This document shows, piece by piece, positions 4,573-36,420 of a stretch of DNA of 64,000 bases (positions within the stretch are counted from its first letter, which is position 1; every line of letters starts with the position of its first letter). The position numbers were made by a program, and so were the translations under genes. The stretch comes from Acidimicrobiia bacterium (GTDB lineage Bacteria > Actinomycetota > Acidimicrobiia > IMCC26256 > JAENVU01), in contig JBKJIQ010000047.1 in NCBI GenBank assembly GCA_046598395.1, positions 7,290 to 71,289 on the forward strand, in the 5' to 3' direction. The notes beneath the pieces were generated by a model, which was not told where the DNA came from, ran no database searches, and worked only from the letters and a program-made list of their open reading frames with translations.

Positions 4573-4610
4573 GGGGCGTCAGTGTCCCCGTTGCCTGACA
4601 CGAGCGTCAA
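4573..4610 (-). promoter_or_regulatory. Leaderless-type promoter (TTGACG-18 nt-GACACT-8 nt-ATG) overlapped by operator CTGACACGAGCGTCAA (4595-4610)
   Basis: Read directly; the motif recurs at 13409, 17458, 23339 and 36404. Confidence 0.6.
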
Positions 4611-4656
4611 CTCCAAGCGTCGATCCGCCGCTTCCGTCTGGGCAACCAAACTTCCG

Positions 4657-4703
4657 GCGCTTGTCGGATCGTGTGCGGCTACCGCCACCTATTCGACAAG
4701 CGC
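4657..4703. repeat. Intergenic inverted repeat (terminator or REP-like)
   Basis: GCGCTTGTCG (4657-4666) and CGACAAGCGC (4694-4703), 27 nt apart, downstream of the propeller gene. Confidence 0.55.
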
Positions 4704-4734
4704 TACTGGGCTTGCGCGCTTTCTCGGCTGCGGA

Positions 4735-6033
4735 TTAGGACCGGGCGTAGGCGGCGACGGTCCCGTTCGCGGTGGGGACGTAGACGCGACCGTTGGCCAC
4801 TTCGACGCCACCCGCGGCGGCGCCGACGTTCGTGTCCCACAGAGCCGAGCAGACGCGCGTCGTGGCCGAACACTGCGCGACGCCCGCAGCGTCGAACGCC
4901 TGCACGGTGCCATCCGACGATGAGACATAGACGAGACCGTTCGCGACCGCGGGGGCCGTGACATTCGGACCGACGAATGCTTTCCACAGCGGGAAGCACA
5001 CCTTCGGCGTACCCGAACAGTTGGTGACGCCGTGCGCGTCGTAGGCGCGCAGTTGCGAACCAATCGACCGATAAAGGATGCCGTTCGTGATTGCCGGTGC
5101 GGCATCGGCGGCGCTCGCCACGACATCGGTCGACCACAGCGGCGCGCAGAGTTTGGGCGATCCAGAGCATCCGGTCGTGCCGGTTGCGTCGAATCCCACC
5201 AGGCGCTCTCCATCTGCTGAGTGGTATCCGGTGATGACTACACCACCGCTCACTACCACGCTGCGCGTCGGTGGCCCCGGCAACGCCGCGCTCCAAAGCT
5301 GCGCTCCCGCGGCATCGGTACCGTCAAACGCGAACCGTGACCCGGCGTTCACGCCGACCGGGCCGTAGACCGCGTAGACCACTCCGCCCGCCACTGCCGG
5401 CGAGGCGGTGGTGCCACCCGAGGACCCTCCGCCGACATACGCCTGCCAACTCGCCGAACACGCAGCTCCGGAAAAGGCTGCGACACACGTCGGCGTCTCC
5501 GGGCTTGGATGGCCGTAGAGATAGACCTGCTCGGCGCCATGGATGCTGAACCCGCCGTAGTTGAAGTGCATCGTTCCCACATCAGTAGGCCCGCCGGAAA
5601 TCCTCGCGTCGTAATCCAGCCAACGCACGGCGCAGGATTTCGGCACGCCGCTGCAGCCCGTATTGCCGTCGGCGTCGAATGCTGCGGTGCCCAGGTACAA
5701 CGTGGACCCGATGACATCGGGAGCGCCGCCGAACGTGGTCGACCACTGGGGCGAGCACACCGAGCCAACACAGCCGTTCTGTCCATCGGCTGCGTAGACC
5801 CGTGTGGGAGACCCGTCGACGTAGATGTGGTTCCTGGCTACGACGAACGCTGGGATCACCGACGGGGTTGCGGAGGCAACGGAAAACGATTTCGTCAATG
5901 ACGCCCCGTTCGCCGCCGCGATATTCGTCTCGAACGGGTTCGCTCCGGCGTTGCCGGCATCGAAACGGGGTCGGGCCCAACCGCACCCCGCTCCGACGAA
6001 ACCCAGCACACACACGATCGCATACCGTCGCAT
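4735..6033 (-). CDS. PQQ-like beta-propeller repeat lipoprotein with repeated Cys-pair loops
   Basis: Signal peptide and lipobox (VGAGC); blades of type PAVAxGxVYV...AFDA...C..C..LW. Confidence 0.75.
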   Translation of the reverse strand: MRRYAIVCVLGFVGAGCGWARPRFDAGNAGANPFETNIAAANGASLTKSFSVASATPSVIPAFVVARNHIYVDGSPTRVYAADGQNGCVGSVCSPQWSTTFGGAPDVIGSTLYLGTAAFDADGNTGCSGVPKSCAVRWLDYDARISGGPTDVGTMHFNYGGFSIHGAEQVYLYGHPSPETPTCVAAFSGAACSASWQAYVGGGSSGGTTASPAVAGGVVYAVYGPVGVNAGSRFAFDGTDAAGAQLWSAALPGPPTRSVVVSGGVVITGYHSADGERLVGFDATGTTGCSGSPKLCAPLWSTDVVASAADAAPAITNGILYRSIGSQLRAYDAHGVTNCSGTPKVCFPLWKAFVGPNVTAPAVANGLVYVSSSDGTVQAFDAAGVAQCSATTRVCSALWDTNVGAAAGGVEVANGRVYVPTANGTVAAYARS

Positions 6034-6092
6034 CCAGTCCCCCCGAGGTCTGGCGTGGAGTCTGCCACCATCAGGAAGCCTTGCGTTCTGGA

Positions 6093-8264
6093 TCAAGGAT
6101 CCTTCGGAAGTCCGAGTACCCGCTCACCCACGATGTTGCGCTGAATCTCGCTGGTTCCGCCGGCGATCGTGAGGTTCCGGGTGAACAGGAACTGGTGCGC
6201 CCAGCCCATCGCCTCGCCCTCGAATACCGCACCGGCGGCGCCGAAGAGTGCCAGACCAACCTCCTGAACGCGCTGATCGTGTTCCACCCCGAGCAACTTG
6301 CGCACCGATGCTTCGGAGCCGGACGGGTCCGCGCCACCAAGTGCCGAGAGCATCAGCCGATGCCCGAGCACCGACAGCGCGTAGTCACGCGCCACGAGAT
6401 CGCCCGCCTCGGCCAATGCGGCGGTGTCATTGGTCAGCCCTTGTTCCCGAACGAGATCGAGCACGCCACGCACTCCACGTCCGATCGTGGTTCCGCTCCC
6501 CATGAACACCCGCTCGTTCGCAAGCGACGTGCGCGTGGCGCGCCATCCGTCGTGCTCGCGACCCACGAGACAGTCGTCGGGAACGAACACGTCGTCGAAG
6601 AACACCTCGTGAAAGAAGGCGTGGCCGGTGAGCTCACGGAGCGGACGAATGTCGATCCCGTCGGCGCTCATATCGAGCATGAAGAACGAGATCCCTTCGT
6701 GCTTCGGCACTTCGGGATCCGTCCGGGCGAGCAGAATTCCCCAGTCGGCTTCCTTCGCCATGGAAGTCCAGACCTTCTGACCGTTGATCAACCAACCACC
6801 TTCGATGCGCTCGGCGCGCGTCGAGAGCCCCGCGAGATCCGAACCTGCGCCCGGTTCACTGAAGAGTTGGCACCAGGCGATCTCGCCGCGCAAGGTGGGC
6901 GGGATCCAACGCTGCTGTTGTTCAGTGGTTCCGAACACCATTAGCGGCGGGAGTGCCCACGCGCCGATCATGAGACTTGGACGCGTCACCTTCGCGGCGC
7001 GGAACTCGTCGTCGATCACGAGCTGTTCGATCGCACTGGCGCTACGTCCCCACGGCATGGGCCACTGCGGCGCGAGGTACCCGGCATCCGCGAGGAGCCG
7101 GCGCGACTCGGGCGCATCGACACCATCGAGGCTCGCCACAAATGCGCGCACATCATCACGCCAATCGTTGGCCTCCTCGGGGAGGTCAACCTCCAAGCGG
7201 CGGTGCGCGCCATCCAATGCCAACCGAGCCGCTCGCACTCGCCAACCGTTGGAGGCGCCAATGAGCGAACGCGTGGTCATCGCACGCCGCAGATATACGT
7301 GGGCGTCATGTTCCCAAGTGAAGCCGATTCCACCCAGCACCTGCACACAGTCTTTGGCAGTCTCGAAGAACGCATCGATCGTGAGGGCACCGACCGCGGC
7401 CGCGGTGAGGCTTGCCGTGGTCGCATCGTGTGCGCCTCGGGCCGCATCCCAGACCGCGGCGCGAGCGAGTTCGGTACGGGCGAGCATGTTGGCGCACCGG
7501 TGCTTCACGCCCTGGAACTGTCCGATCGGGCGGCCAAACTGGCGGCGGTCGCGGGCATATTCCGCGGCCGTATCCACACACCATTGCGACGCGCCGACGG
7601 CCTCGGCGGCGAAGAGCAGCACTGCGAGGTCTCGAACCAATTCCGTGACCACCGACGGCAACCGTCGACTCCGTGAGATCGTGGCATCCACCATTACCTC
7701 AGCGACGCGCCGCGTGAGATCGACCGTCGGGAGTTCACGCGCTTCGTACTCCCCCGCGAGCAACACGACCCACCCGGCACCAGTGTCCGCGATCAGCAGC
7801 TCGCTCACATGACCGGAGAGGACGGGCGACAGCCGCCCTTCCACTCGCAGCTTTGCGCCAACATCGGTGGCCTGCACTGCACCAGTCAGCGCGACCGTAC
7901 CGACGAAGCCGGCGGCGGCCAGGCCCGGCAAGTACTCCGCCGCCGCGCTGTCCCCCGCGTCCGCTGCTCGCTGCAGCACTGCGCCAGCCAATGCGTGTGC
8001 CAGAAACGGTCCGGGTGCGCCAACGCGCCCGAGTTCCTCGAGCACCACCGCGAGCTCGAGGAGCGACGCTCCCTCGCCGCCGTATTCCTCGGTCACGTGG
8101 ATCCCGGGCCACCCTTGTCCCGACAGCTCCTGCCAGAACGTGGGCAGCGACTCAGTTGCCGCGTCGAGCATTGCCCGGGGCACGCTGGATGGGCACCGGC
8201 GTTCGGTCCAGCCTCGTACGGCGCGGTGGAGCTCCTGGTGTTCTTCGCTGATTCCAATCGGCAT
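6093..8264 (-). CDS. Fused two-domain acyl-CoA dehydrogenase (FadE34/ChsE3-like)
   Basis: 723 aa with two ACAD modules: RRQFGRPIGQFQGVKH...GGIGFTWEH, then WCQLFSEPGAGSDLA...TIAGGTSEIQRNI. Confidence 0.9.
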   Translation of the reverse strand: MPIGISEEHQELHRAVRGWTERRCPSSVPRAMLDAATESLPTFWQELSGQGWPGIHVTEEYGGEGASLLELAVVLEELGRVGAPGPFLAHALAGAVLQRAADAGDSAAAEYLPGLAAAGFVGTVALTGAVQATDVGAKLRVEGRLSPVLSGHVSELLIADTGAGWVVLLAGEYEARELPTVDLTRRVAEVMVDATISRSRRLPSVVTELVRDLAVLLFAAEAVGASQWCVDTAAEYARDRRQFGRPIGQFQGVKHRCANMLARTELARAAVWDAARGAHDATTASLTAAAVGALTIDAFFETAKDCVQVLGGIGFTWEHDAHVYLRRAMTTRSLIGASNGWRVRAARLALDGAHRRLEVDLPEEANDWRDDVRAFVASLDGVDAPESRRLLADAGYLAPQWPMPWGRSASAIEQLVIDDEFRAAKVTRPSLMIGAWALPPLMVFGTTEQQQRWIPPTLRGEIAWCQLFSEPGAGSDLAGLSTRAERIEGGWLINGQKVWTSMAKEADWGILLARTDPEVPKHEGISFFMLDMSADGIDIRPLRELTGHAFFHEVFFDDVFVPDDCLVGREHDGWRATRTSLANERVFMGSGTTIGRGVRGVLDLVREQGLTNDTAALAEAGDLVARDYALSVLGHRLMLSALGGADPSGSEASVRKLLGVEHDQRVQEVGLALFGAAGAVFEGEAMGWAHQFLFTRNLTIAGGTSEIQRNIVGERVLGLPKDP

Positions 8265-8292
8265 AGCTACGGATCGTAAGGGCCTGCGGAGA

Positions 8293-8335
8293 ATCTGACG
8301 AGTCGTCAGATCGGCATAGGCTGACCCTTCGTCAG
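8293..8335. promoter_or_regulatory. Two palindromic operators (ATCTGACGAGTCGTCAGAT 8293-8311; CTGACCCTTCGTCAG 8321-8335) in a divergent promoter region
   Basis: Perfect 8-bp arms in the first site; -10-like TAGGCT between the sites on +; TACGAT 8 nt before the ATG at 8264 on -. Confidence 0.7.
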
Positions 8336-8364
8336 CGGCCGCACCGCTCTTCAGGGGGATTCAT

Positions 8365-11498: not shown

Positions 11499-11708
11499 CT
11501 AGACGATCTTTTCGCCGTCGCGCATGACCGCGATCGCTTGGGTCGGACACCCTTGCGCGGCGAGAATCACCTTGTCCTCCGATTCACCCGCCGCGTCGAT
11601 CACGATCGCGACGCCGTCGTCGTCGAGGTCAAAGACTCCGGGGGCCCAGAACGAACAGTTCCCCGAACCCATACAGACTTCGCGGTTGATCTCAATCGAC
11701 AACGCCAC
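11499..11708 (-). CDS. Ferredoxin (Fer4_15, probably 3Fe-4S)
   Basis: CMGSGNC...APGVF...GCPTQAI; GTG start after a strong AAGGAGGT ribosome-binding site. Confidence 0.9.
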   Translation of the reverse strand: MALSIEINREVCMGSGNCSFWAPGVFDLDDDGVAIVIDAAGESEDKVILAAQGCPTQAIAVMRDGEKIV

Positions 11709-11809
11709 CGGGGCGACCTCCTTTTCGGACAACGGCCAACCTACCGCGGCGAGCAGGGGAGGCGACCGATGCGGAAGTCGTTCGAGCTGGGCCCGCTGCT
11801 GATGTTGGT

Positions 11810-12208
11810 TCAGACGCCGCGTGCCACGTTGAGCGCGCCCCAAAGCATCGGGAGCTGTAATGGCAGGCGCGCCCATGCCACCGCCGCCGAGTTCATCGGC
11901 GGCTTGGCGTCGGGCATTCCACCGTCGAGCGCGAGCTGCCAGTTCGCCGGCCACACCGCGAGAATTGTCGCCAACGACGCCCAGCCACCGACCTTGCGAG
12001 TCTGGGACCGCAGCATGAGCCCCGCGCATGCCAGCTCCGCCACGCCACTGAGGTACGTCCAGGTTCGGGGCGTTCCGGGCATCCATTGCGGCACAATCGG
12101 GTCATAGAACCCCGGATTTGTGAAGTGGGTCACTCCGGCGCCGCCCATCAGTGCGAGCATTCGCCACGGAATCCGGGAGGGGGCTGGGTCGACCGGTTGT
12201 TGCTTCAT
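11810..12208 (-). CDS. DoxX-like membrane protein
   Basis: GVTHF...YDPIVP...SGVAE...VWPANW...WARLPLQ pattern. Confidence 0.8.
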   Translation of the reverse strand: MKQQPVDPAPSRIPWRMLALMGGAGVTHFTNPGFYDPIVPQWMPGTPRTWTYLSGVAELACAGLMLRSQTRKVGGWASLATILAVWPANWQLALDGGMPDAKPPMNSAAVAWARLPLQLPMLWGALNVARGV

Positions 12209-12218
12209 CGCCGCCAAC

Positions 12219-13415
12219 TCAGGCGACGTCGAAAAGTACGGGCAGCGTGGTCGGAGAACGGAAACGTTCGCCATGAATATGCACATCGTCCGCGTCCCAG
12301 CGGGCAGGGTCCTGACGCAGGTTCGGGCACCGGTCGATGAGCCGGTTGACGGCAGTGGCCATCTCCATTCGGGCCAGGTGGATCCCGAGACACATGTGGA
12401 CACCGTGACCGAAGGCGATGTGCGGTTGCGGCTCACGGAAGATGTCGAACGTTTCGGGCCGGTCCCAACGGGTCTCGTCGTGGTTGGCGGCCCCGATATT
12501 CACGGTCACGAATCCACCCTTCGGAATCGTGACTCCGCTGATGTCGGTATCGGTTGCGCACTCGCGTGACGTAATGAGCAACGGCCCTTCCCACCGGATC
12601 GACTCTTCAATTGCTTGGGGCATGAGCTCACGATCCGATCGCAGCGCGTCGAACTGTTCCACATTGCTCAGCAGGCCGTGCAAGAAGCTGCCCGTGGCGC
12701 GATATGTGGTCTCGGCCCCGGCGGGAAGCAGCAGCCGCAGAAAAGAAAAGATCTCTTCGTCACCAAGTCGTTCGCCGTCGAGTTCGGCCACCGTCAACTC
12801 GCTGATGATGTCGGTACCCGGACGCGTCCGCCGTTCGTCCATGATTCCCGCGAAGTAGTCGCGCAGCTCCTCGCTCGCAACAATTCCTTCCTCCGGACGG
12901 ACCGCCACATTGATCACGGCCAGCGCACGCGGATGGAAGAAGGCATGGTCCTCTCGCGGCAAGCCGAGAATCGCGGCAATCACCTGGGCGGGATAGTGAT
13001 AGGTGAACTCGCTGACGAGATCGGCTTCGCCTCGGGCCGCGAATCCGTCGATCATGTCGTCGACGACCGGCACCACGAGGTCCGCATCCCAATGGGCAAG
13101 CGTGCGCTGACGAAACGCTTGTGCGACGAGCGCCCGCAGGCGGCGGTGCTCCGGTTCATCCATCCCTACCAGTGGATACGGACCCATCACCACGCTCATG
13201 AAGTCGCGAATCGAACCCGACGGGAACGTCACATTGTCGCGCATCACTGCGGAGACAAGCTCGTAGGGGTAGATCTCGTAGCCACCGTCTTCCATCAACT
13301 CCACGGGCTGCGTGGCGCGCTTGTCCCAGAAGCCCGGATATGGGTCACGGACGTCACCCGCGACGCCGGTGAACTGCGACATCGGGTCGAACGGAGCATC
13401 CACAGAAACTGACAT
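12219..13415 (-). CDS. Cytochrome P450
   Basis: AGAETT I-helix, EESIR (ExxR) and FGHGVHMCLG heme motif. Confidence 0.95.
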   Translation of the reverse strand: MSVSVDAPFDPMSQFTGVAGDVRDPYPGFWDKRATQPVELMEDGGYEIYPYELVSAVMRDNVTFPSGSIRDFMSVVMGPYPLVGMDEPEHRRLRALVAQAFRQRTLAHWDADLVVPVVDDMIDGFAARGEADLVSEFTYHYPAQVIAAILGLPREDHAFFHPRALAVINVAVRPEEGIVASEELRDYFAGIMDERRTRPGTDIISELTVAELDGERLGDEEIFSFLRLLLPAGAETTYRATGSFLHGLLSNVEQFDALRSDRELMPQAIEESIRWEGPLLITSRECATDTDISGVTIPKGGFVTVNIGAANHDETRWDRPETFDIFREPQPHIAFGHGVHMCLGIHLARMEMATAVNRLIDRCPNLRQDPARWDADDVHIHGERFRSPTTLPVLFDVA

Positions 13416-13430
13416 GCGTGTCAGCTTAGA
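13409..13430 (-). promoter_or_regulatory. Leaderless promoter (TAAGCT-7 nt-ATG) with operator CTGACATGCGTGTCAG over the P450 start codon
   Basis: Perfect 6-bp arms CTGACA/TGTCAG at 13409-13424. Confidence 0.65.
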
Positions 13431-16231: not shown

Positions 16232-17410
16232 TTACGCGGGCATGACCTCGAGCACCGTCGCGGATCCCATACCGCCGCCGGCACACATACTCGAGACGCC
16301 AATGCCGCCGCCGCGACGCGCGAGTTCGTTCACGAGCGTCACGATCATGCGCGCGCCCGTGGCTGCTACGGGGTGACCGAGACTGCAGCCGCTTCCATTG
16401 ACGTTGGTGATCTCGTGCGAAATCCCCAGGATGCGAGTACTCGCCACGCACATCGATGCGAAGGCTTCGTTGATCTCGAACAAGTCGACGTCGCCAACGG
16501 CCAGACCTGCACGTGCGAGCGCCTTCGGAATGGCATACGTGGGACCAAGGCCGGTGTCCTGTGGTGGCACTCCCGATGAAGCCCACGACTTCACGATCGC
16601 CATCGGCTTGAGTCCATGCGCCTGCGCATACTCGGAATCCACCAACATCAGCGCCGCGGCCGCGTCGTTCAACCCTGACGAGTTACCTGCAGTGATGCTG
16701 AAGCCCTCGATCTCGGGGTGCAGTGGCTTGAGGCTTGCGAGCTTCTCCATCGTGGTGCCGCGGCGGGGGTGTTCATCCACGCTGAACGTGACCGTTTCCC
16801 CGTCGCGGCGCACGATGTCGATGGGGAAGATCTCTGCCTCAAACTTGCCGGCATCGATCGCAGCATTCGCCCGGTTATGTGATTCGTAGGCCCAGTAGTC
16901 CATCTCTTCGCGTGTCACGTTGGCCTTCTGCGCGGTGTTCCAACCCACGGTGATCGACATGTCGAACGCCGGAGCCTCCGGCGTCTCCGGGTGGCTCGGC
17001 GACATCCACGGCTTCATCTCGTCGGTGCCCATCACCCGCTTCATCGCGGCTGGCGAACTCGAGATGCTCTCCGCTCCGCCCGCGATTACCACGCGATCCA
17101 TGCCGGCACGGATACTCGCAGCCGCGCCCTGGACCGCGGCCATACCCGAGGCGCAGTGCCGGTTCAGGGCAACCCCGGGGACGTTCTCGAGGCCGAGTTG
17201 GACCGCGGCGTAGCGGGCAATGTCGCCGCCGCCTTGCAGCGACTCCCCCATCTGGAGATCGTCCACGTCGGCGTGCTCGACTCCTGATCGGCGCAGCGCT
17301 TCACCCACCGCGTACGCAGCCAGATCGAAGGCAGGAACATCGAGCAGGGTTCCCTTGCGGGCGGTACCGATCGCGCTACGAGCGGTCGAGACGATGACGG
17401 CGTCACCCAT
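16232..17410 (-). CDS. Acetyl-CoA C-acyltransferase (canonical thiolase)
   Basis: NRHCASG nucleophile, TAGNSSGLNDAA, EINEAF, GHPVAATG and MCAGGGMG motifs. Confidence 0.93.
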   Translation of the reverse strand: MGDAVIVSTARSAIGTARKGTLLDVPAFDLAAYAVGEALRRSGVEHADVDDLQMGESLQGGGDIARYAAVQLGLENVPGVALNRHCASGMAAVQGAAASIRAGMDRVVIAGGAESISSSPAAMKRVMGTDEMKPWMSPSHPETPEAPAFDMSITVGWNTAQKANVTREEMDYWAYESHNRANAAIDAGKFEAEIFPIDIVRRDGETVTFSVDEHPRRGTTMEKLASLKPLHPEIEGFSITAGNSSGLNDAAAALMLVDSEYAQAHGLKPMAIVKSWASSGVPPQDTGLGPTYAIPKALARAGLAVGDVDLFEINEAFASMCVASTRILGISHEITNVNGSGCSLGHPVAATGARMIVTLVNELARRGGGIGVSSMCAGGGMGSATVLEVMPA

Positions 17411-17448: not shown

Positions 17449-17473
17449 ATCGTATCCCTGACGCTGATGTCGG
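17449..17473 (-). promoter_or_regulatory. -10 TACGAT with adjacent operator-like CTGACGCTGATGTCGG (17458-17473)
   Basis: One mismatch to the TGACR-N4-YGTCA consensus; upstream of the thiolase. Confidence 0.5.
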
Positions 17474-19953: not shown

Positions 19954-21492
19954 TTAGCGTTCGATGCGTTCGGTATAGAGCCGGTGGGCATCGTCGTCGG
20001 ACGTCAGGCAGCGCCCGGTGGCCACGTCGAACTGCCAGTGGTGCACCTTGCACTCGAGCACACCGTCGGTCACGCTCCCGAACCGCTCGAGATCGGCGCG
20101 GAGATGCGGACACCGCTTCTGAATCAGGTACTCGCCGCACCGGAACACTTCGTCGACGGGCTCCGCGTGCATTGCGTAGTAGCCCTCGCAAAATGCCATG
20201 CGCTCGACCGAGAGACATTTGAAGAACGTGTAGATGTACTCGTTGTACGGGCCCTCGCGATGCGCACGGAATCGGCACGAGAGGAAGAGATCGTTGACCC
20301 AATCCTCCACGTGGCGATCGATCACGGACTCGATCAACGAACGGTCGACATCGAAGCGGTACAGAACCGCCTCACCGGCCCACTCGCGGACCTGGCCCGT
20401 GGCGAAATCAAGCAGGACTCCGGTGTCGCCCACATGGAGCAGCACCCGCCCACCGACCCCGGCGCGGGTGTACGGGGCCAGATCGAGGATCGGTTCGAAC
20501 CAGGCCCGAAGTTCGGCCACGATGTCGAACTGGCCTCGCGGCAACGACGCCCGCTCGCGATCGAGCCAGTCCGACCAGTCGGCGCGATAGCGCTCGAGGT
20601 GCGCGCGCTTATCGGAGAAGATCACACCCGGTGACGTGTCGCCGATGGGGTGATCGATCACGCACGCGGTGTGGTCGATTGTGGCAACCGAACCGGGAAC
20701 CACCAGTCGCGCCCAGGTCGATCCGCGTTTTCGGAGTTCGTCGATGAACACCGTCTGGTCCGGGAAAATGTTTGCGGCGTCGTCGTCCAGATCGTTGAGC
20801 GACCAGAGATCGTCGTCGAGAAAACACGGAGGACCCGCGACGGGAAACACGTTGGTGGCACCCACCGCGTCGATGTAGTGGATGGCCCGTTCCGTCTGCG
20901 CGGCACGCTTCTGTATTCCCAGCGCGCGCATTTCATCAGGCGGGAAGTCATAGACCATAGGGAACCAGATCGCACCTGAGAACTGCGTGAAGTGCGCATC
21001 GAATGGGCCCAGCGCATCGAGCGCGCCAAAGTCTCGGGGGCGAGAGTCATTTTGGTTCAGAATGGTCGCGGTGGAATCGCGCAAGATCAGTGCAGAATCT
21101 CCTGCGGGTCCATCAGCAGGAGCGGTCATCGCGATGATCGCGACCTCCAGCGCGTCGAGCACAACGGGAACAGCGTTGTCGGTCTCAATGAAGTTCCGGA
21201 AACCGAGTGTTCGAAGTTCGTGTTCTAGATGATCCACTTCGAACGCCGGCAACAACACCTGGGCTTCCCTGTCCACGTGCTGGGCGAGCCAACGGGGGTC
21301 GAAGTGGTCCCGGTGAAGATGCGAAATGTAGAGGTAATCAGGATTCGAGAACGGCGAGACGTCCAACGTGTCGTTACGCGGAAACGGAAACCACGAACCG
21401 AAGTACGCCGGGTTGAACCACGGATCACAAAGGACCGTCCCACCCTCGGTCTCGACGAACATACCGACGTGGCCGAGGAATGTGACGCGCAT
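19954..21492 (-). CDS. MBL-fold protein with C-terminal Rieske [2Fe-2S] domain (Rv3818-like)
   Basis: TFLGHVG, CDPWF, ISHLHRDHFD; C-terminal CPHL...CKVHHWQFD. Confidence 0.88.
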   Translation of the reverse strand: MRVTFLGHVGMFVETEGGTVLCDPWFNPAYFGSWFPFPRNDTLDVSPFSNPDYLYISHLHRDHFDPRWLAQHVDREAQVLLPAFEVDHLEHELRTLGFRNFIETDNAVPVVLDALEVAIIAMTAPADGPAGDSALILRDSTATILNQNDSRPRDFGALDALGPFDAHFTQFSGAIWFPMVYDFPPDEMRALGIQKRAAQTERAIHYIDAVGATNVFPVAGPPCFLDDDLWSLNDLDDDAANIFPDQTVFIDELRKRGSTWARLVVPGSVATIDHTACVIDHPIGDTSPGVIFSDKRAHLERYRADWSDWLDRERASLPRGQFDIVAELRAWFEPILDLAPYTRAGVGGRVLLHVGDTGVLLDFATGQVREWAGEAVLYRFDVDRSLIESVIDRHVEDWVNDLFLSCRFRAHREGPYNEYIYTFFKCLSVERMAFCEGYYAMHAEPVDEVFRCGEYLIQKRCPHLRADLERFGSVTDGVLECKVHHWQFDVATGRCLTSDDDAHRLYTERIER

Positions 21493-21611
21493 GGGCCCAG
21501 CCTGCCAGACCGTGACCAGACCCTCGGACCGCCTCGCCGCCAAAGACCACACCCCCGATTCCGTTCCGGCGATAGCGTCTCGGACCTCGTACACCACCGA
21601 AGAGGTTGGAC

Positions 21612-23150: not shown

Positions 23151-23376
23151 ATGAAGGTAGCGCTGCGAGTCGTGGCGACCACCCTCGCCGCGCAGTTCGC
23201 GCTGCTGCTGGGTACAGGTCTCTGGCTGATCTGGAACTACCGGCCCACCCGCGCTCGTGATACCGACGGTTCTGCTGCTCCTCATCGCCGTCGCCGTCTG
23301 GCGGGCGTGGCGCCCCGCGATAGGTTCCCTCCCCGAACCTGACGTCGACGTCACCAGGAGTGAACCGTGGCACTGA
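23151..23376 (+). pseudogene. Frameshifted or internally deleted small membrane gene, possibly a cytochrome b N-terminal-like remnant
   Basis: TM1 (LLLGTGLWLIWNYRPT) in one frame; TM2 (ALVIPTVLLLLIAVAVWRAW) resumes in the +1 frame at 23251 and ends at TGA 23374-23376. Confidence 0.5.
23321..23354 (+). promoter_or_regulatory. -10 TAGGTT followed by operator CTGACGTCGACGTCAC (23339-23354)
   Basis: Matches TGACR-N4-YGTCA; AGGAG ribosome-binding site follows, before the GTG at 23367. Confidence 0.6.
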
Positions 23377-23822
23377 CCGAGTTGAAGGGCACGAAGGGCG
23401 GCACCCAGGTCGTGCGCATCGAACGGGGGCCGGTGCGCGTATTCGCGCAGGCCCTCATGGACACCGACGCCGTCTACGACCACGACGACGCGCCGGTACC
23501 CCCCACGTTCCCTTTCGTCATGCCGTTCTGGGGTTCCGATGGCGCAGGTGGCGCGGCGGGACTCCCCATCGAGAAGCTCCGCGGTCCCGGCCGGGCGATC
23601 CTCCACGGAGAGCAGGGCTTCGAATACTTCCGGTGGCCGAAAGTCGGCGACGTTCTCGAAGGCACCTCGGAGATCACCGACGTGTACGAGAAGGAAAAGT
23701 CCAACGGCGGGAAGCTCGAGTTCTACGTGCAGGAAACCACCTGGCGCGACCAAGCGACCGGCGACCCCGTCGTGAAGAACATTTTCACGCTCGTCATCAA
23801 CTGTCGTCCGCCCAAGCCGTAG
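23367..23822 (+). CDS. MaoC-like dehydratase N-terminal/hotdog subunit
   Basis: IERGPVRVFAQA, VPPTF, ILHGEQGFEYFR motifs. Confidence 0.85.
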   Translation: MALTELKGTKGGTQVVRIERGPVRVFAQALMDTDAVYDHDDAPVPPTFPFVMPFWGSDGAGGAAGLPIEKLRGPGRAILHGEQGFEYFRWPKVGDVLEGTSEITDVYEKEKSNGGKLEFYVQETTWRDQATGDPVVKNIFTLVINCRPPKP

Positions 23823-23833
23823 CCCACACTCGT

Positions 23834-24256
23834 ATGTCCACGATCGACGCACGCCAGAACGAGTCCGACATTCGGAAGCTGCTCGCGGCCTATTGCCATC
23901 ACTACGACGACCGGCGCGCCGGAGACTTCGCCGCACTGTTCGCCGAGGACGCCACCTTCACCGTGTTTGGGACGAGTCGGCACGGGCGCCAGGAGATTCA
24001 CGACCACATTGGGACCCAGCGGCCCGGCATGCCGCCCGGCCAGCACGTGACCTACAACTCCGTGATCGAAGTGGCGCCAGATTCGCTCACCGCTTTGGCC
24101 TGGACCGACTTTCTCTACATGAAGCAGACCGACGACGGCTTTTCGATCACCAACGCCGGTCGGTACCACGATCGCCTCGTGCGCGAGTCGGGCCGTTGGC
24201 GGTTCCAGGCCCGCACCATCGTCTTTCTCGGTGACCCGGTTCCGGACGGCGTGTGA
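23834..24256 (+). CDS. NTF2/SnoaL-like protein
   Basis: DIRKLLAAYCHHYDD, LFAEDA and GRYHDRLVR...WRF motifs. Confidence 0.85.
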   Translation: MSTIDARQNESDIRKLLAAYCHHYDDRRAGDFAALFAEDATFTVFGTSRHGRQEIHDHIGTQRPGMPPGQHVTYNSVIEVAPDSLTALAWTDFLYMKQTDDGFSITNAGRYHDRLVRESGRWRFQARTIVFLGDPVPDGV

Positions 24257-25029
24257 GTTCGCCCGCGCCAACGGTTCGCACGGGTGATCCTGCACTCCCC
24301 TACCGCCGCCGCATCCGGCTGGTCCGGATCGATGCCGCCACCGTGTGGGGTGGGCTCGAAGACGATTTCCACCACTTCGAAGTCCGACTCACCCACGACG
24401 CCACCCACGTCACCGACATTGCGATGGACGCGTTCCGGTGGCCATGGGCAACGTGCCCGGACGCGGGCCTGCGCCTCCGCGAACTTGTGGGCTTGGAGCT
24501 TTCCGATCGCTGCACCGCAGTAGCCGCGGCAAGCGACCCGCGCTGGCAGTGCACCCACCAGTTCGACCTCGCGGGACTGTGTGTCTCCCACGCGGCTCGC
24601 GGCACCCCCGAGCGCCAGTACGACATCTCCCTCGACATCGGGACAACCACCAGCCATCCGCGCTTGTGGCGCGACGGTGAACTCATCCAGGACTGGACCC
24701 TCGAGGGCGCAGGCATGGGTCGGGTACTCGTCAACCCGCCCGAGTTCCTCGGCGCGCCGTGGAAGGGAGGGTTCATCAAATGGGCCGACGCGAATATGGC
24801 CCCGTTCGACGCAGAAGCTGCGATCATCCTGCGCCGGGCCTGTGACATCGGGATGGGCCGCGGCATGGATCTCGAAGCAATCGCCACCGCGTCCGAACTC
24901 GCCGGGATCATGAGCGGCGTCTGTTATTCGATGCAACCCGCCGTCATGCCCGTGGCGTTTCGCAGCCGGGGCACGATCCGAGATTTCGGCATCAACCCCG
25001 CCGCCCTCCTCGCCGGGCGGCCGACCTAA
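24253..25029 (+). CDS. DUF2889 domain protein
   Basis: LEDDFHHF, PWATCP and CTHQFDLA motifs; GTGA overlap with the upstream gene. Confidence 0.8.
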   Translation: MSSPAPTVRTGDPALPYRRRIRLVRIDAATVWGGLEDDFHHFEVRLTHDATHVTDIAMDAFRWPWATCPDAGLRLRELVGLELSDRCTAVAAASDPRWQCTHQFDLAGLCVSHAARGTPERQYDISLDIGTTTSHPRLWRDGELIQDWTLEGAGMGRVLVNPPEFLGAPWKGGFIKWADANMAPFDAEAAIILRRACDIGMGRGMDLEAIATASELAGIMSGVCYSMQPAVMPVAFRSRGTIRDFGINPAALLAGRPT

Positions 25030-25036
25030 CCCATCC

Positions 25037-25924: not shown

Positions 25925-26719
25925 ATGAGCTATTCCGTCACCGGCAAGCACGTCCTCGTGACCGGAGCATCAACTGGAATCGGTGCCGCGCTCGCGATTG
26001 GCTTTGCCGCGGCGGGCGCGGTGGTGGGTATCTGCGCGCGGCGCGAACCCGAACTCGCCGAGGTGCTGGCGCAGGTCCAGGAACACTCCCCCGCTTCCCA
26101 GATGTGGACTGTCGATCTCGACGACCTCGACGCGCTGGAACCCTTCGCCGCGGAGGTGAGCCTGGAGATGGGCGGGCTCGACGTGCTGGTGAACAACGCC
26201 GGCATCCCGAAGCGAAGGAACGTTCTCGCGTTGGACCCCGAAACAGTGGAGTCGGTGATGCGACTCAACTATTTCTCACCGGTTCGCCTGATGCTCGCGT
26301 TCCTTCCGGAGCTCATCGAACGTAGCGGCCGCATCGTGAACATCTCGTCGGTTGCGGCGCGCCTCGGCCCTCCGGGCGAAGCTGCATACACCGCTTCGAA
26401 AGCCGCGATCACGGGCTTCTCCGAATCGATGCAGGTGGATCTCGGCATCGCAGGCCACGACGTTTCGGTCCATGTGGTGAACCCCGGGGTGATCGACACC
26501 CGGCTCTTCCATTTGCCCGACAACGACCCGTCGATTGCCACCATCGAGGCGCTGCCGACCACCGCGATGGTGGAGCCGGTCCTCGCGGCGCTCGATGCCG
26601 GAACGTTCGAGATCTATGTGCCCGGGTGGTTCGCGGAGGTGGTTGGAGGCAAGTTTCCCGACACCGGGGCGTTCCTCGCCGGCACCACCGCATGGGCACG
26701 GGAGCAAACCAACGCCTGA
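25925..26719 (+). CDS. SDR family oxidoreductase
   Basis: TGASTGIG, NNAG and YTASK motifs; GGAGG ribosome-binding site. Confidence 0.9.
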   Translation: MSYSVTGKHVLVTGASTGIGAALAIGFAAAGAVVGICARREPELAEVLAQVQEHSPASQMWTVDLDDLDALEPFAAEVSLEMGGLDVLVNNAGIPKRRNVLALDPETVESVMRLNYFSPVRLMLAFLPELIERSGRIVNISSVAARLGPPGEAAYTASKAAITGFSESMQVDLGIAGHDVSVHVVNPGVIDTRLFHLPDNDPSIATIEALPTTAMVEPVLAALDAGTFEIYVPGWFAEVVGGKFPDTGAFLAGTTAWAREQTNA

Positions 26720-26756
26720 CGTGCTCGTCCGGTGCGTTCCATGAGGAGACCGAACG

Positions 26757-31496: not shown

Positions 31497-31509
31497 CCGA
31501 TCGAACGGT

Positions 31510-32064: not shown

Positions 32065-32363
32065 TCACGCGGCTCGACGAGTTGGGCGAACTCCCCGACC
32101 ATACGCACCGCAGCCAGCCTTCCTTCGACATCGAGATCACCCCAACCAGACCGACCGCTCCAATCAATCTCGGTCGCTCGGATCCTCAACTCCAGACCAC
32201 ATGCTTCGACCAAGCGCGACAGGAGATCGAGTGTCGGCTCCATCCGTCCTCGTTCGATTCGAGCCACCGAGGACGGTGAGATACCTGCTCGATCAGCCAG
32301 CGCGCGTTGACTCAAGCCTGCACGAGATCGAGCGTCTTGGCAGATTGCGTAGGCCGCAGACAT
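32061..32363 (-). CDS. XRE-family HTH protein (putative antitoxin/regulator)
   Basis: ARSRAGLSQRALADRAGISPSSVARIERGRMEPTLDLL. Confidence 0.88.
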   Translation of the reverse strand: MSAAYAICQDARSRAGLSQRALADRAGISPSSVARIERGRMEPTLDLLSRLVEACGLELRIRATEIDWSGRSGWGDLDVEGRLAAVRMVGEFAQLVEPRE

Positions 32364-32401
32364 CATGCGAGCATATACGCTCGCATCGGTCTGAGCGGCC
32401 G

Positions 32402-33043
32402 CTATTTGCCCGTAGCGGTGTGGTGGAGGATGCGGGCGGTGGTTTCCACCACATCGGCACGTGACGTGCCGTAGGCCGCGAGGTCGGCGTGGAACGCGGC
32501 CATCCGTTCGAGCATGGAAACCATGGCGGCCCCGGCGGCATAGGGCGACAGTCCGGAGTTCGAACGCGCCAAGACCTTGGCGCCGATGCCTTCGGTCAGT
32601 GGTCGAAGGGAATCGTTGCGCACCGCGCGGAACCGATCGTCGCCCTCCTGAGCTGCGAGGTTCCGAGTTCGGAGCACGCACCGATGCTTGTCCCAGTTCG
32701 TGATGAAGTCTTCGACGAGGCGCCGAGCGATCCCGAGTCCTTCCGGACCGTTCCAATCTTCGGCGAGGAGTCCTGCGAGTGACGATGACTCCTCGCCCAC
32801 TGCGATCGAAAGCGCGAGGACCGCATCCTCGACGTCGGCAAAGTATTGATAGAACGTTGCCGGCGAGAGATCTACCGCCCGGGCGATATCGACCACCCGG
32901 AGTTCGCGCAACCCTTTGTCCTCCAACAGCTGAGCCGTGGCGTCGAGCAACCGTGCCCGGGTCTCGGTACCGCGACGCCCCAGCGACCGGCCATCGAGCG
33001 CCACCCGCTCCGCGATGCTCGGTCCGACCGCCGGATTAGTCAC
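32402..33043 (-). CDS. TetR family transcriptional regulator
   Basis: TRARLLDAT...VVDIARAVDLSPATFYQYF. Confidence 0.92.
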   Translation of the reverse strand: MTNPAVGPSIAERVALDGRSLGRRGTETRARLLDATAQLLEDKGLRELRVVDIARAVDLSPATFYQYFADVEDAVLALSIAVGEESSSLAGLLAEDWNGPEGLGIARRLVEDFITNWDKHRCVLRTRNLAAQEGDDRFRAVRNDSLRPLTEGIGAKVLARSNSGLSPYAAGAAMVSMLERMAAFHADLAAYGTSRADVVETTARILHHTATGK

Positions 33044-33479
33044 CGGCTTCGACCCCGACGGACTCGACGAACTCGACGAATGCGACCTCGTCGCTGGCCC
33101 GCTTGAAGGCGGCACGGACCCGAGCACCGATCACTGCTTCTTCCGGCGCGAGCGTGGGGAGTTGGGCCACGAGGCGAGCACCGTGCTCGTCGAGATCAAC
33201 GAGGCCAACCACGAACGGAACCTGTTCGCGGAACGGTGGGATCCCGTGTTGGCGGATAACGGTGAAGGAGTGCAGTGTTCCCAAACCTGACGAGGTGATC
33301 CACTCCAGGTCTTCCGCTCCGCAGTGCGGGCACGCGATCCGAGGATAGTGGTGATGCAATCCGCAGCTGCCACAGCGCTGGATTCGCAGTTCGCCGCGAA
33401 CCGTGCCCGCGAAGAACTCAGCCGCCTCCGGTGAGATTCTCGGAATCAAATACTTCGGCACGTCCTCCGCAGAACTCAT
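33036..33479 (-). CDS. DUF35 Zn-ribbon/OB-fold protein
   Basis: FFAGTVRGELRIQRCGSCG...PRIACPHCG, LHSFTV; ATGA overlap with the thiolase. Confidence 0.9.
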   Translation of the reverse strand: MSSAEDVPKYLIPRISPEAAEFFAGTVRGELRIQRCGSCGLHHHYPRIACPHCGAEDLEWITSSGLGTLHSFTVIRQHGIPPFREQVPFVVGLVDLDEHGARLVAQLPTLAPEEAVIGARVRAAFKRASDEVAFVEFVESVGVEAGD

Positions 33480-34642
33480 ACCGGTTCCGTTCCCAACACG
33501 ACGGTACCCATGGTGGAAAGCCAACCGCCGCTGCCGTGCGCTACCGCAATCTCTGCACCTTCGACCTGGCTGTCCCCCGCTTCGCCTCGCAGCTGCCGGG
33601 TCGCCTCGCACAGCAGGAAAAGCCCTCGCATTCCCGGGTGCGTTGCCGAGAGTCCCCCACCATCGGTGTTCGTTGGCAGCGCGCCGCCGAGCCGCAACGC
33701 GCCGGACGCGGCGAACGGACCCCCCTCGCCCTTCGGAGCGAACCCGAGGTCTTCGAGGCAGACGAGCACGGTGTACGTGAAGGAGTCGTACATCTGGAAT
33801 GTGTCGACATCTGTCGGGGAGATCCCTGCTTCGGTGAACGCCTTCGGACCCGTGACCGCGCCCGCCGTCACGGTGAGGTCGGGCATCGCTTGCATCGAGT
33901 GATGGGTCATGCCGGCGGCCGCACCCCGCACGAACACCAAGGGTCGACCGAGATCGCGTGCCCGATCTTCGGTGGTGAGGATCAATGCACAGCCGCCGTC
34001 GGACACCACGCAACAGTCGAGCTTGTGGAGTGGATCCGCAACGAGCCGCGAACTCACGACATCCTCGATGGTGATCAGGTCGCGATACATCGCATGCGGG
34101 TTCCGCTGCGCGTGCTCCCGAGTTTGCACCGAGATCGATGCCAACTGTTCGGCGGTGGTGCCGTACTGATACATGTGGCGCTGGGCGGCCATCGCGTACG
34201 CGCCCACCAGGGTGAGTCCGGTCGGGAGTTCCCAACTCATGGGATACGGCATCGCCGCTGCGCCGCCACCCGCGCGCCCAGTTCCGAGGGATCGACCTGC
34301 CGCCGAATACTCGTTGTTGCCGTAGACGATTGCGACCGTATCGACGTCGCCCGCCTGAATCGCTCGGAACGCGTGCAGCGCGTGGAACTCGAAACTCGAT
34401 CCGCCACAGCTCGTGGAATCGAGCCAATGCGGGCGCAAACCGAGATACTCCGCTAGCTGAACCTCGTGCATCCCTCCGTACCCGGCCGAGGCAAGTCCGT
34501 CGATCTCGTTCTTGGTGAGACCTGAATCCTTCACTGCTCGCCCAAAGGCTTGCGCCTGGAGCATGAGCGCCGACAAGTCCGGCGTCTTCGGCCCGTCGGC
34601 CAGACCGACGCCCACCACACACACTCGACGGTTTGCGCTCAC
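33476..34642 (-). CDS. SCP-x-type thiolase
   Basis: STSCGGSS, LDCCVVSDGG, MYDSF and NTDGGGLS motifs. Confidence 0.88.
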   Translation of the reverse strand: MSANRRVCVVGVGLADGPKTPDLSALMLQAQAFGRAVKDSGLTKNEIDGLASAGYGGMHEVQLAEYLGLRPHWLDSTSCGGSSFEFHALHAFRAIQAGDVDTVAIVYGNNEYSAAGRSLGTGRAGGGAAAMPYPMSWELPTGLTLVGAYAMAAQRHMYQYGTTAEQLASISVQTREHAQRNPHAMYRDLITIEDVVSSRLVADPLHKLDCCVVSDGGCALILTTEDRARDLGRPLVFVRGAAAGMTHHSMQAMPDLTVTAGAVTGPKAFTEAGISPTDVDTFQMYDSFTYTVLVCLEDLGFAPKGEGGPFAASGALRLGGALPTNTDGGGLSATHPGMRGLFLLCEATRQLRGEAGDSQVEGAEIAVAHGSGGWLSTMGTVVLGTEPV

Positions 34643-34695
34643 GACGGCGGACGTTATCCAAGTACGCGCGGTGGTGTTTGTGGAAGCATCCAGGC

Positions 34696-35628
34696 GTGCT
34701 GGCCGATCTGCTGCGATCCCTCTCCAACCCACTCGCGAATCAGTTCATCGAGGTCCCTGCCCCGGTTGCGCTCACCCTCCCCGGTCGACGACCTCGCAGC
34801 CCGACTCTCATGAACGTCGGTGAAGACGAGCGCTTCACCCCCGATCTGATCGCCGACCCGCATGGACGAATCGCGATCCTCGTCGGTCCGTTTGCGCTCC
34901 TCGACCCGGACGGCCTGCACCGAATCGCTCACCACCTGGGGGCACCAGTGGCGAACACCTGGGGCGCGAAGGGCATCTACCCATGGAACAGCCCGCATCA
35001 CATGGGCACCGGCGGACTCCAACGTGATGATTTCGCACTGTTGGGTCTGGCCGACTTCGATCTCGTCCTCACGATCGGCATCGACTCCGCGGAGACGTCG
35101 CCACCCTTCCCCTCCGCGGCACGGATCTTCCACTTACCCGACGGACTAAGACCGTTGGTGGTTCCCGGCGCGCCCCGCCCGTTCGTTCCCATCCCCAACG
35201 ACCTCTTCACGAGGATCAGCGCGATCGCCCAACCCGGATACGTGGATGACGCATTCCCCCGTCACCCGGCCCGCGCGGTGATGGATCTCAAGCAATCCCT
35301 TGGCGAATCAACCCGGGTGACGGCGCAACCTGGTCCGGTCGGGCTGTGGATCGCTCGCACGTTTCCCACCGACCGCATGGGCAGCGTGATCGTCCCGGCA
35401 TACGACCGACCCGGCATCGGCGCCGCCGTCGGCCTCGTCTCCGCAGCCCAAGGAACCGAAACCGTATGCGTCGTCGCCGGCCCCATCGACGCCACGACCC
35501 ACGAGGCCCTCCACGTCGCCCGTCATCATGGTTTCCCGCTGCGTCTCGAGGTGTGGGAGGACGACGTGAACTGGAACCGCACCGAGGATCTCATCGCGGT
35601 CGCGGGTCCCGTCGTAGCGTGGACGTGA
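34696..35628 (+). CDS. Degenerate ThDP-enzyme (acetolactate synthase-like) homologue
   Basis: Middle domain APVANTWGAKG...MGTGGLQ..DF...ADFDLVLTIG; C-domain HPARAVMDL..LWIAR; GDG motif replaced by AGP. Confidence 0.6.
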   Translation: MLADLLRSLSNPLANQFIEVPAPVALTLPGRRPRSPTLMNVGEDERFTPDLIADPHGRIAILVGPFALLDPDGLHRIAHHLGAPVANTWGAKGIYPWNSPHHMGTGGLQRDDFALLGLADFDLVLTIGIDSAETSPPFPSAARIFHLPDGLRPLVVPGAPRPFVPIPNDLFTRISAIAQPGYVDDAFPRHPARAVMDLKQSLGESTRVTAQPGPVGLWIARTFPTDRMGSVIVPAYDRPGIGAAVGLVSAAQGTETVCVVAGPIDATTHEALHVARHHGFPLRLEVWEDDVNWNRTEDLIAVAGPVVAWT

Positions 35629-36407
35629 TGGAAGAAACTCGCACCGCGGCAATCTCCGGCGCGTCCGGCGGCATCGGTCGCGCGATTGCTCTCGGCCTGG
35701 GCCGACTCGGCTGGTCGGTGGCGCTCGGTGGTCGTCGGATCGACGCGTTGGAGATCACCGCCGATCTGGTGACGCTCGAAGGCGGCACCCCGTTCGTCCA
35801 CTCGCTCGACGTGACCGATGCCGGAAGCATCGATGCCTTTTTCAACGCATCCGAAGCCGCGCTCGGCCCCGTTGATGCCCTGGTGAACAACGCGGGAATC
35901 GCCGTGCCCGGACTGCTCGTCGACACCGACGCCGACGCGCTGGCTCGGGAGATCGACACCAACTTGCTCGGGCCACTGCTCTGCACGCGCCGGGCGCTCG
36001 GCTCGATGCTCGACGCCGGGCGCGGCGACATCGTGTTCGTCTCGTCCGACGCGGCGCGTACCCCGCGCCCGGGGCTGATCGGATACAGCGCAAGTAAGGC
36101 TGCGCTCGAAACCGTTGCGCGCGTGGTCGATATGGAGACGGAGGGACGGGGCATCCGCACCACCGTGATCCGAGTCGGCCCGACACTCACCGACTTTGCC
36201 GGCGAGTGGACCCCCGGTACCTACGAGCATCTGGTGGGGATGTGGCCCCGTTTCGGGATCCAACGCCACTTCAACACCATGGCACCCGAAGACATCGCCG
36301 GCGTCGTGATCCATGCCCTCACCGCACCACCGCATGCCCGCATGGACACCATCGAAATCCAACCGGTCGCTCCGGTCGCTGCCGTCAAGCCACCAGCGGT
36401 ACCCTGA
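35628..36407 (+). CDS. SDR family oxidoreductase
   Basis: SGASGGIG, NNAG and YSASK motifs; TGATG coupling to the upstream gene. Confidence 0.9.
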   Translation: MEETRTAAISGASGGIGRAIALGLGRLGWSVALGGRRIDALEITADLVTLEGGTPFVHSLDVTDAGSIDAFFNASEAALGPVDALVNNAGIAVPGLLVDTDADALAREIDTNLLGPLLCTRRALGSMLDAGRGDIVFVSSDAARTPRPGLIGYSASKAALETVARVVDMETEGRGIRTTVIRVGPTLTDFAGEWTPGTYEHLVGMWPRFGIQRHFNTMAPEDIAGVVIHALTAPPHARMDTIEIQPVAPVAAVKPPAVP

Positions 36408-36420
36408 CGCCGACGTCAGG
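36400..36420 (+). promoter_or_regulatory. -10 TACCCT overlapped by operator CCTGACGCCGACGTCAGG
   Basis: Perfect 7-bp arms (36403-36420), upstream of the amidohydrolase. Confidence 0.65.

Follow-up and report, generated by a model that had tools for sequence, protein, structure and literature searches.

The 64,000-nucleotide stretch of DNA analysed here, which we refer to as the window (G000:C23:7290-71289), carries five copies of a palindromic sequence at the promoters of catabolic genes. Comparison with the remainder of the source genome G000 and with related genomes characterises this palindrome as a real, conserved and strongly non-random candidate repressor operator that occurs across an order of uncultured Acidimicrobiia. 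Judged from sequence comparisons, its reader is most probably a TetR-family protein encoded outside the window on contig C29, which would act as the repressor of a dispersed catabolic regulon comprising about 22 sites and at least 20 transcription units. The window is the largest island of this regulon, with five sites inside and a sixth 720 bp to its left.

Sequence and genomic distribution of the palindrome

A first-pass annotation of the window had described five sites of the form TGACR-N4-YGTCA, each on a promoter, as a candidate lipid-catabolism regulon controlled by a TetR protein encoded nearby. All five sites were recovered where it had placed them: perfect matches start at 4596, 13410, 23340 and 36405, and the site at 17458 deviates by one mismatch, as had been noted. 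Each of the five lies 12–47 bp upstream of a start codon or overlaps one. The motif is far more frequent than expected by chance: six perfect matches in the window compare with 0.67 ± 0.79 in 100 dinucleotide-preserving shuffles, none of which reached six. The window represents 1.8% of the genome (3.58 Mb, 50 contigs, 65.6% G+C) but contains 6 of its 33 perfect matches (p = 2e-5). Promoter enrichment, which had been proposed as a check, was found genome-wide, with 17 of the 33 perfect matches being intergenic (binomial p = 5e-10) at an intergenic background of 9.1% of all bases. These and all further statements on intergenic or coding location depend on the gene calls of our own codon-bias caller (3327 genes, 91% coding), which is crude.

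Nearly all intergenic perfect matches bear an additional flanking C and G. The corresponding sharper form CTGAC-N6-GTCAG occurs in 16 copies in the genome, 14 of them intergenic. The two nominally coding copies are located 28 and 68 nt upstream of evident true starts, each consisting of a ribosome-binding site and an ATG, of a short-chain dehydrogenase gene and an Amidohydro_2 gene, for which the gene caller had set the starts too far upstream. Control patterns, namely CTGAC with N4, N7 and N8 spacing, the reversed GTCAG-N6-CTGAC and the CAGTC, CTCAG and CTGTC variants, gave 0–2 copies each genome-wide. The exception among the controls was the N5 spacing with nine intergenic copies, which proved to be a separate box and is described below.

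Sites were scored with an iterated position weight matrix, with a listing threshold of 10. Genome-wide, 25 sites reached a score of at least 16, and 19 of them are intergenic versus a background of 9% (p = 2e-15). The full motif is a palindrome of 16–20 bp, aCCTGAC(A/G)(C/T)-nn-(A/G)(C/T)GTCAGGt, and hence longer than first described; about 22 strong copies were found in the genome, nearly all of them 12–70 bp upstream of start codons. Among 22 curated sites, all 44 half-sites contain TGAC; a C precedes it in 38 of them and an A or G follows in 41, and the centre varies.

Two perfect matches in the window are chance matches, because they are coding, lack the C/G flanks and have matrix scores below 10; they are located at 41673-41686, inside a PAS-GGDEF-EAL gene, and at 57487-57500, inside the coding gene 56864-57952 (minus strand). 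A weak box-like match at 26716-26731 (score 10.8), situated off promoters between a short-chain dehydrogenase gene and a convergent class II aldolase gene, is probably a chance occurrence as well.

Putative operators and target genes in the window

The five operator copies were compared with 30 orthologous promoters per target; related genomes are denoted by G-numbers. Promoter hexamers were read by eye and are backed by their conservation in these promoters; target functions were assigned by Pfam, NCBIfam and PDB searches. Conservation of the box in orthologous promoters was evident at the P450 (25/30), MaoC (23/30) and thiolase (20/30) genes, lower at the hot-dog gene (12/30) and restricted to 6/30 at the amidohydrolase gene.

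Copy 1 (4595-4610, minus strand) reads TTGACGCTCGTGTCAG with a score of 21.1. The left half at the same time forms a −35-like TTGACG, with GACACT (GACACT or TAGCAn in orthologues) 18 nt further on and then the MaoC ATG. The operon behind it (1769-4572, minus strand; Pfam and PDB) encodes a MaoC dehydratase (4141-4572), a DUF35/ChsH2-type OB protein (3734-4144), an unknown protein (3397-3729), a second DUF35 protein (2976-3404) and an Ltp2-like thiolase-fold protein (1769-2974), which matches the 'lipid-transfer protein' of PDB entry 6ok1 with E = 9e-56.

Copy 2 (13409-13424, minus strand; CTGACACGCATGTCAG; score 26.8) is the candidate operator of an operon (11499-13415, minus strand) for a cytochrome P450 (12219-13415; Pfam, PDB), an unknown protein (11810-12160) and a 4Fe-4S ferredoxin (11499-11708; Pfam). 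According to the PDB search, this P450 is no nearer to CYP125/142 than to many other P450s. A −10-like TAAGCT, or TAGGCT in orthologues, extends over the first two bases of the box, and the TAA of TAAGCT at the same time terminates the FGGY kinase gene upstream as its stop codon. The in-frame ATG of the P450 gene (13415-13413) is located inside the operator, 7 nt past TAAGCT (region 13403-13424), and the 25 promoters that retain the box retain this internal ATG too. As a conserved ATG 7 nt past a −10-like hexamer is the leaderless actinobacterial layout, this arrangement suggests that the P450 mRNA is leaderless and starts at ATG 13415 within the operator.

The one-mismatch copy 3 (17458-17473), CTGACGCTGATGTCGG or, on the minus strand, CCGACATCAGCGTCAG (score 18.6), adjoins a likewise conserved −10-like TACGAT, with the end of the box 1–3 nt before this hexamer in orthologues. 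The start codon 47 nt downstream belongs to a true thiolase, an acetyl-CoA C-acyltransferase (16232-17410, minus strand; Pfam; NCBIfam TIGR01930, 1.5e-118). Copy 4 (23339-23354, plus strand; CTGACGTCGACGTCAC) has a weaker right flank and a score of 13.4, and the 12 orthologous promoters counted above score at least 13 at the same position. It is preceded by a conserved −10-like TAGGTT and followed by the ribosome-binding site and the GTG start of a gene for a hot-dog hydratase-like protein (23367-23822), the first of an operon (23367-25029, plus strand; Pfam) that continues with a SnoaL_4 protein (23834-24256) and an unknown protein (24253-25029). The label DUF2889 that had been attached to the last of these was dropped, as Pfam gave no match at 1e-5.

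Copy 5 (36404-36419, plus strand; CTGACGCCGACGTCAG; score 23.9) is overlapped in its first two bases by a −10-like TACCCT and followed by the ribosome-binding site AAGGGA and, 21 nt downstream, by an ATG. The gene (36441-37724, plus strand) encodes an Amidohydro_2 protein (Pfam) of the amidohydrolase-related dinuclear oxygenase type, which matches DitZ (PDB 8uyr) over its full length with E = 9e-107; a methyltransferase gene (37759-38526) may be co-transcribed with it. DitZ is a diiron hydroxylase of diterpenoids (dehydroabietic acid) among the amidohydrolase-related dinuclear oxygenases (PMC13154177). The sixth site of the island, at C23:6569 to the left of the window, is a top-scoring box (27.7) in the promoter region from which two acyl-CoA dehydrogenase genes diverge; the 3' part of one of these genes forms positions 1-436 (plus strand) of the window.

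A TetR-family protein encoded on contig C29 as the candidate reader

A scan with PF00440 (TetR_N) identified 22 TetR genes in the genome, and just one of them, C29:20667-21299, carries the box in its own promoter. This gene encodes a protein of 210 amino acids and is divergent from a MaoC hydratase gene, with the box between the two, 20 bp upstream of the TetR start; in the TetR direction TAGCCT comes after the box, and the ATG 6 nt after that. As the gene's own promoter bears the box, the arrangement implies that the regulator is autoregulated. The protein matches TetR_N at residues 28–74 (2.5e-14; C29:20748-20888 in the genome scan). Its AlphaFold2 model (mean pLDDT 89.3, pTM 0.83) consists of nine helices and gave EthR, FasR, GusR and TtgR as top Foldseek matches, with a probability of 1.00 and TM-scores up to 0.8. 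Sequence and model thus display the features of the TetR family: a helix-turn-helix domain, an all-helical fold of nine helices in two domains, the C-terminal one for ligand binding and dimerisation, a short promoter palindrome and an operator at the own promoter. No finer name could be assigned, since NCBIfam returned only sub-threshold helix-turn-helix matches with no equivalog above the cut-off and the PDB search only generic TetR matches.

Orthologues of the C29 TetR with 46–85% identity are present in 36 of 41 related genomes, and almost all of the 30 orthologue loci fetched bear the box directly upstream. CTGAC-N6-GTCAG occurs 7–36 times in each of the 36 TetR-bearing relatives, versus 0–3 times in the five without the TetR (G011, G032, G034, G035 and G036), which equals the reversed-pattern control. 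A second comparison covered 80 regulator loci from species-representative genomes, in which the box was sought within 250 bp upstream. Here it was found in 24 of 26 loci with at least 50% identity but in only 2 of 54 in a paralogue group with 36–49% identity (Fisher p = 6e-16).

All relatives found with the regulator protein are metagenome-assembled genomes (MAGs), and nearly all are labelled Acidimicrobiia or unclassified Actinomycetota; the source organism is therefore an uncultured Acidimicrobiia bacterium. Five MAGs (L043, L048, L051, L083 and L084) that encode this Acidimicrobiia-type TetR bear the labels Bifidobacteriaceae, Frankiaceae or Burkholderiales, and the bins concerned are probably chimeric or wrongly labelled.

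The paralogue group deserves attention, because its member in the source genome (C18:100110-100718, 44% identical to the C29 TetR) might itself read the box, alone or together with the C29 protein. None of the five motif-less genomes has this C18-type paralogue; a short-chain dehydrogenase promoter with a box (C18:97106) is located about 3 kb away from its gene; and in G014 and G022, where boxes are present, it is the only one of the two seen. Presence and absence alone therefore cannot separate the paralogues. The autoregulatory sites are what tells them apart: the 24/26 versus 2/54 distribution given above assigns the box to the orthologues, and the C18 gene itself has no box upstream. In addition, G033 appears to possess the orthologue alone and has 12 boxes. 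We consider a role of the C18-type protein unlikely and retain the C29 TetR as the reader.

Loss of the candidate regulator in a close relative

Among the five genomes without the C29-type TetR, G011 belongs to the same genus as the source and is 97% complete. It keeps the MaoC gene adjacent to the TetR gene (85% identity), but neither a C29-type TetR gene nor a remnant of it was found in G011. It also keeps orthologues of all five window targets with 82–89% identity. The five orthologous promoters are without box, and nothing in them scores 9 or more (L264, L119, L146, L182, L214, L248). At the P450, MaoC and thiolase promoters a degraded remnant persists, of which the left half is intact and the right half-site is lost; the box is wholly gone from the hot-dog and amidohydrolase promoters, with TAGGTT staying in place at the former. 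The G011 promoters retain −35/−10-like hexamers. As read from these sequences, the pattern is the operator decay expected when selection is relaxed after loss of a repressor.

The same promoters bear on the possibility that the repeats bind no dedicated protein and are merely −35 hexamers, RNA hairpins or terminators, or a small dispersed repeat. The left half does resemble TTGACA and at the MaoC promoter stands as TTGACG at −35 distance, and the sequence forms an inverted repeat. The right half-site is conserved equally to the left, though, and the orientation of the sequence relative to the gene is not fixed. CTGAC...GTCAG has 14 intergenic copies versus 2 for TTGAC...GTCAA. In G011 the −35-like half of the MaoC box is kept and the right half alone is lost, as at the P450 and thiolase promoters, so that the box disappears from promoters that keep their −35 and −10 hexamers. 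Hairpins and terminators are contradicted by arms that never covary, by a stem of just 5–7 bp without a T-run and by the position of the sites upstream, not downstream, of genes; a dispersed repeat is contradicted by flanks that are unrelated beyond 20 bp. We rejected these explanations on the invariant right half, the fixed N6 form, the upstream position and the unrelated flanks, and hold them to be extremely improbable relative to an operator bound by a protein.

Several observations weigh against the C29 TetR as reader and repressor. In four of the five TetR-less genomes most of the targets are missing as well, which leaves G011 as the sole informative natural knock-out. The genome-wide counts of boxes and TetR genes treat the relatives as independent and ignore kinship, so the co-occurrence across relatives is not phylogenetically independent. 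G014 and G022 show just a paralogue-level match and yet have 9 and 7 boxes, in assemblies that are fragmented or incomplete. The distant orthologues at L031 and L033 are without a clear upstream box, and the orthologue of G017 is frameshifted in a genome that still has 14 boxes. Copy 5 is kept in few orthologous promoters, as noted, while its TACCCT-type −10 is widely kept; the amidohydrolase site looks like a lineage-specific recruit. Finally, repression rather than activation is suggested by the position of the sites alone.

The frameshifted gene of G017 (contig C102; L265 1631-2244) is split such that residues 1–123 and 125–206 are in different frames, and its own upstream box is degraded (CCTGACCGTGCGGTCCGAG). 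This could be recent pseudogenisation, i.e. an early stage of regulator loss, or an assembly error.

The TetR protein encoded in the window and a second box

The first-pass annotation had named the TetR at 32402-33043 (minus strand) as the local candidate for the repressor. This protein has TetR_N and TetR_C_38 domains and is encoded by the third gene of a thiolase-like/DUF35/TetR operon, a gene order confirmed in short Logan contigs. It is the sole TetR of the window, and its operon encodes the same enzyme types as the regulon and is embedded amid the five boxes. No box was found upstream of this operon (34619-34695), and the phyletic pattern is contrary to a role at the N6 box: the orthologue occurs in G011 (intact, 88% identity) and in G036, two genomes with N6 boxes at background, and it is absent from G022, G024, G027, G028, G033, G038 and G040, which carry 7–17 boxes. 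Box-rich genomes thus occur without it and box-poor genomes with it. On these two grounds the local TetR was ruled out, and we regard it as a highly improbable reader of the N6 box. Of the proposed candidate regulon, the recurrent palindromic operator on catabolic promoters stands, and the local TetR as its regulator gives way to the C29 protein.

The distribution of the local TetR instead follows another box, TCTGAC-N5-GTCAGA, which shares the CTGAC half-site with the N6 box and has a spacer one base shorter. Two to seven copies were found in all 29 genomes with a clear orthologue of the local TetR, and none in 8 of the 11 genomes without it, with control counts of 0 nearly everywhere; over the 41 genomes its presence tracks the TetR_C_38 regulator, not the C29-type TetR. 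The source genome has nine intergenic and three coding copies. They precede genes for an acyl-CoA dehydrogenase, an Amidohydro_2 protein, an enoyl-CoA hydratase, an ADP-forming CoA ligase and a solute-binding protein. In the window, the second box occurs at 8294-8310 (TCTGACGAGTCGTCAGA), between the gene for a fused double acyl-CoA dehydrogenase and an Amidohydro_3 gene, with a degenerate copy at 8320-8336 in the same intergenic gap. A further copy with one mismatch lies at 50216-50232 (minus strand), 21 bp upstream of an Amidohydro_2 gene (48969-50195), and one at 45192-45208 is coding. None was seen at the TetR_C_38 operon's own promoter.

From this co-distribution, the TetR_C_38 protein is likely the reader of the second box and hence of a different regulon. 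One can speculate, albeit with considerable doubt, that two distantly related TetR proteins use the same CTGAC half-site and are told apart by the spacer alone (N6 for the C29-type, N5 for the TetR_C_38 protein), which would amount to a two-tier, KstR/KstR2-like circuit over a pathway for terpenoid- or steroid-like compounds that is rich in diiron hydroxylases and P450s and conserved in soil and sediment Acidimicrobiia.

Regulon content and likely pathway

Outside the window, boxes precede three more Amidohydro_2 genes, a second P450 gene, two family III CoA-transferase genes, an acyl-CoA ligase gene, two short-chain dehydrogenase genes, genes for a hydantoinase-B-type enzyme, a zinc alcohol dehydrogenase and a 2-hydroxyacid dehydrogenase, and two genes for solute-binding proteins, which were called by eye from sequence; a further box is the one within the divergent MaoC/TetR pair. 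Altogether four Amidohydro_2 proteins belong to the regulon, one of them shown to be DitZ-like. Besides the P450s and the thiolase, the regulon contains hydratase-aldolase units of the MaoC/DUF35/Ltp2-like kind, with DUF35/ChsH2-type proteins.

The gene content probably serves the degradation of a hydrophobic acid as its CoA ester. The combination of DitZ-like hydroxylases with an Ltp2/ChsH-type unit suggests an alicyclic substrate, probably terpenoid- or steroid-like. The earlier label of lipid catabolism thus holds for a catabolic regulon, and 'lipid' is a fair but loose description of it.

Three further features of the genome concern enzymes of these types. It encodes at least six paralogues (E ≤1e-60) of the DitZ-like diiron oxygenase, including 36441-37724 and 48969-50195, and relatives have up to 20; several of these paralogues stand behind one or the other TetR box. 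The gene at 6093-8171 (minus strand) encodes a 692-amino-acid protein of two fused acyl-CoA dehydrogenase modules, an N-terminal half resembling IpdE2/PimD-type small subunits and a C-terminal half resembling PimC-type large subunits, which suggests a fused heteromeric acyl-CoA dehydrogenase. The gene at 19954-21597 (minus strand) encodes a 547-amino-acid protein with a metallo-beta-lactamase-like region, an Rv3818-like SCP2 domain and a C-terminal Rieske domain. It may donate electrons to the diiron oxygenases, for which an association with Rieske ferredoxins has been reported (PMC13154177).

Proposed mechanism

The size of 16–20 bp and the symmetry of the palindrome would fit one helix-turn-helix of a TetR dimer per arm. 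Relative to the putative promoter elements, the box would cover the −35 and the spacer at the MaoC operon, the spacer up to the −10 at the thiolase gene and at the gene of the TetR itself, both the −10 and the transcription start at the P450 and amidohydrolase genes, and the first bases of the 5' leader at the hot-dog operon. As a bound dimer would cover the −35, spacer, −10 or +1 in every case, it would be expected to exclude or stall RNA polymerase, which points to repression by occlusion. By analogy with KstR, KstR2, FadR and FasR, an acyl-CoA-type intermediate of the pathway would release the repressor, and an acyl-CoA-like inducer is plausible.

Significance and comparison with known systems

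Acidimicrobiia are abundant and almost entirely uncultured. To our knowledge, nothing is known about gene regulation in this class, and we found nothing relevant in the literature on the box or on a TetR regulon in Acidimicrobiia. The present analysis supplies a defined operator together with its probable repressor and a regulon, of about 20 transcription units, that can be tested. Many 'amidohydrolase', DUF35 and hot-dog genes whose role is unknown are thereby placed in a single pathway, and a handle on its substrate is obtained. With the loss of the regulator in G011 and the spacing variant represented by the second box, operator decay and spacing discrimination can be tested cleanly. Furthermore, the conserved TAnnnT boxes and the P450 start within an operator hint, at the level of sequence, at the promoters and leaderless transcripts of this class.

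A TetR repressor acting on a palindromic operator is in itself an ordinary kind of arrangement. With respect to fold, the nearest relatives of the modelled C29 TetR are Mycobacterium tuberculosis proteins. The predicted structure matches the nine-helix fold of EthR with TM-scores of 0.75–0.8, and FasR, also among the top fold matches, has been solved with C20-CoA and with DNA, so that reading of an acyl-CoA ligand is possible in this family. Identities to the C29 TetR amount to only 21–25%, and neither protein has a similar regulon. EthR binds a long operator as an octamer, and FasR is an activator of fatty-acid synthesis, unlike the repressor proposed here.

With respect to geometry, the nearest validated operator is that of SbtR, whose TGAC/GTCA arms are likewise six bases apart. 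Its inner positions are Y-R and those of the present box R-Y, and the outer C/G flank (cCTGAC...GTCAGg) is specific to the latter. The Escherichia coli RutR box, TTGACCAnnTGGTCAA, is similar, again with TGAC/GTCA arms six bases apart and with other inner and outer bases than the present box. The relationship of the proteins is only generic; the NCBIfam model of RutR matches the N-terminal part of the C29 TetR (3.5e-7, residues 21–106). The regulons of SbtR and RutR are unrelated to the present one. For the Thermus thermophilus SbtR box, TGACYRNNYRGTCA, binding by the TetR dimer was demonstrated by REPSA, gel shift and biolayer interferometry (PMC4948773).

With respect to regulon content, the closest parallel is the control of cholesterol catabolism by KstR and KstR2 in Mycobacterium and Rhodococcus, where TetR repressors act on short palindromes at many promoters, the repressor is autoregulated, as the sequence suggests here, and two pairs of TetR and box divide the pathway genes (PMC3068626). 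The targets are alike as well and include P450, thiolase, acyl-CoA dehydrogenase, MaoC/DUF35/Ltp2-type and CoA-ligase genes. The KstR motif, which reportedly reads TnnAACnnGTTnnA, differs from the present box. The KstR2 box AnCAAGnnCTTGnT, which like that of KstR is a palindrome of 14 bp (PMC3068626), is also distinct from the cCTGACry-nn-ryGTCAGg found here, as the first-pass annotation had held. The regulators are not orthologues: KstR2 (4w1u) matches the C29 TetR only with 4e-5 over residues 22–131, i.e. in the N-terminal half, and KstR is not among the best 60 of its 99 PDB matches. Unlike the KstR and KstR2 systems, the one described here resides in uncultured Acidimicrobiia, and its regulon is rich in DitZ-like diiron hydroxylases.

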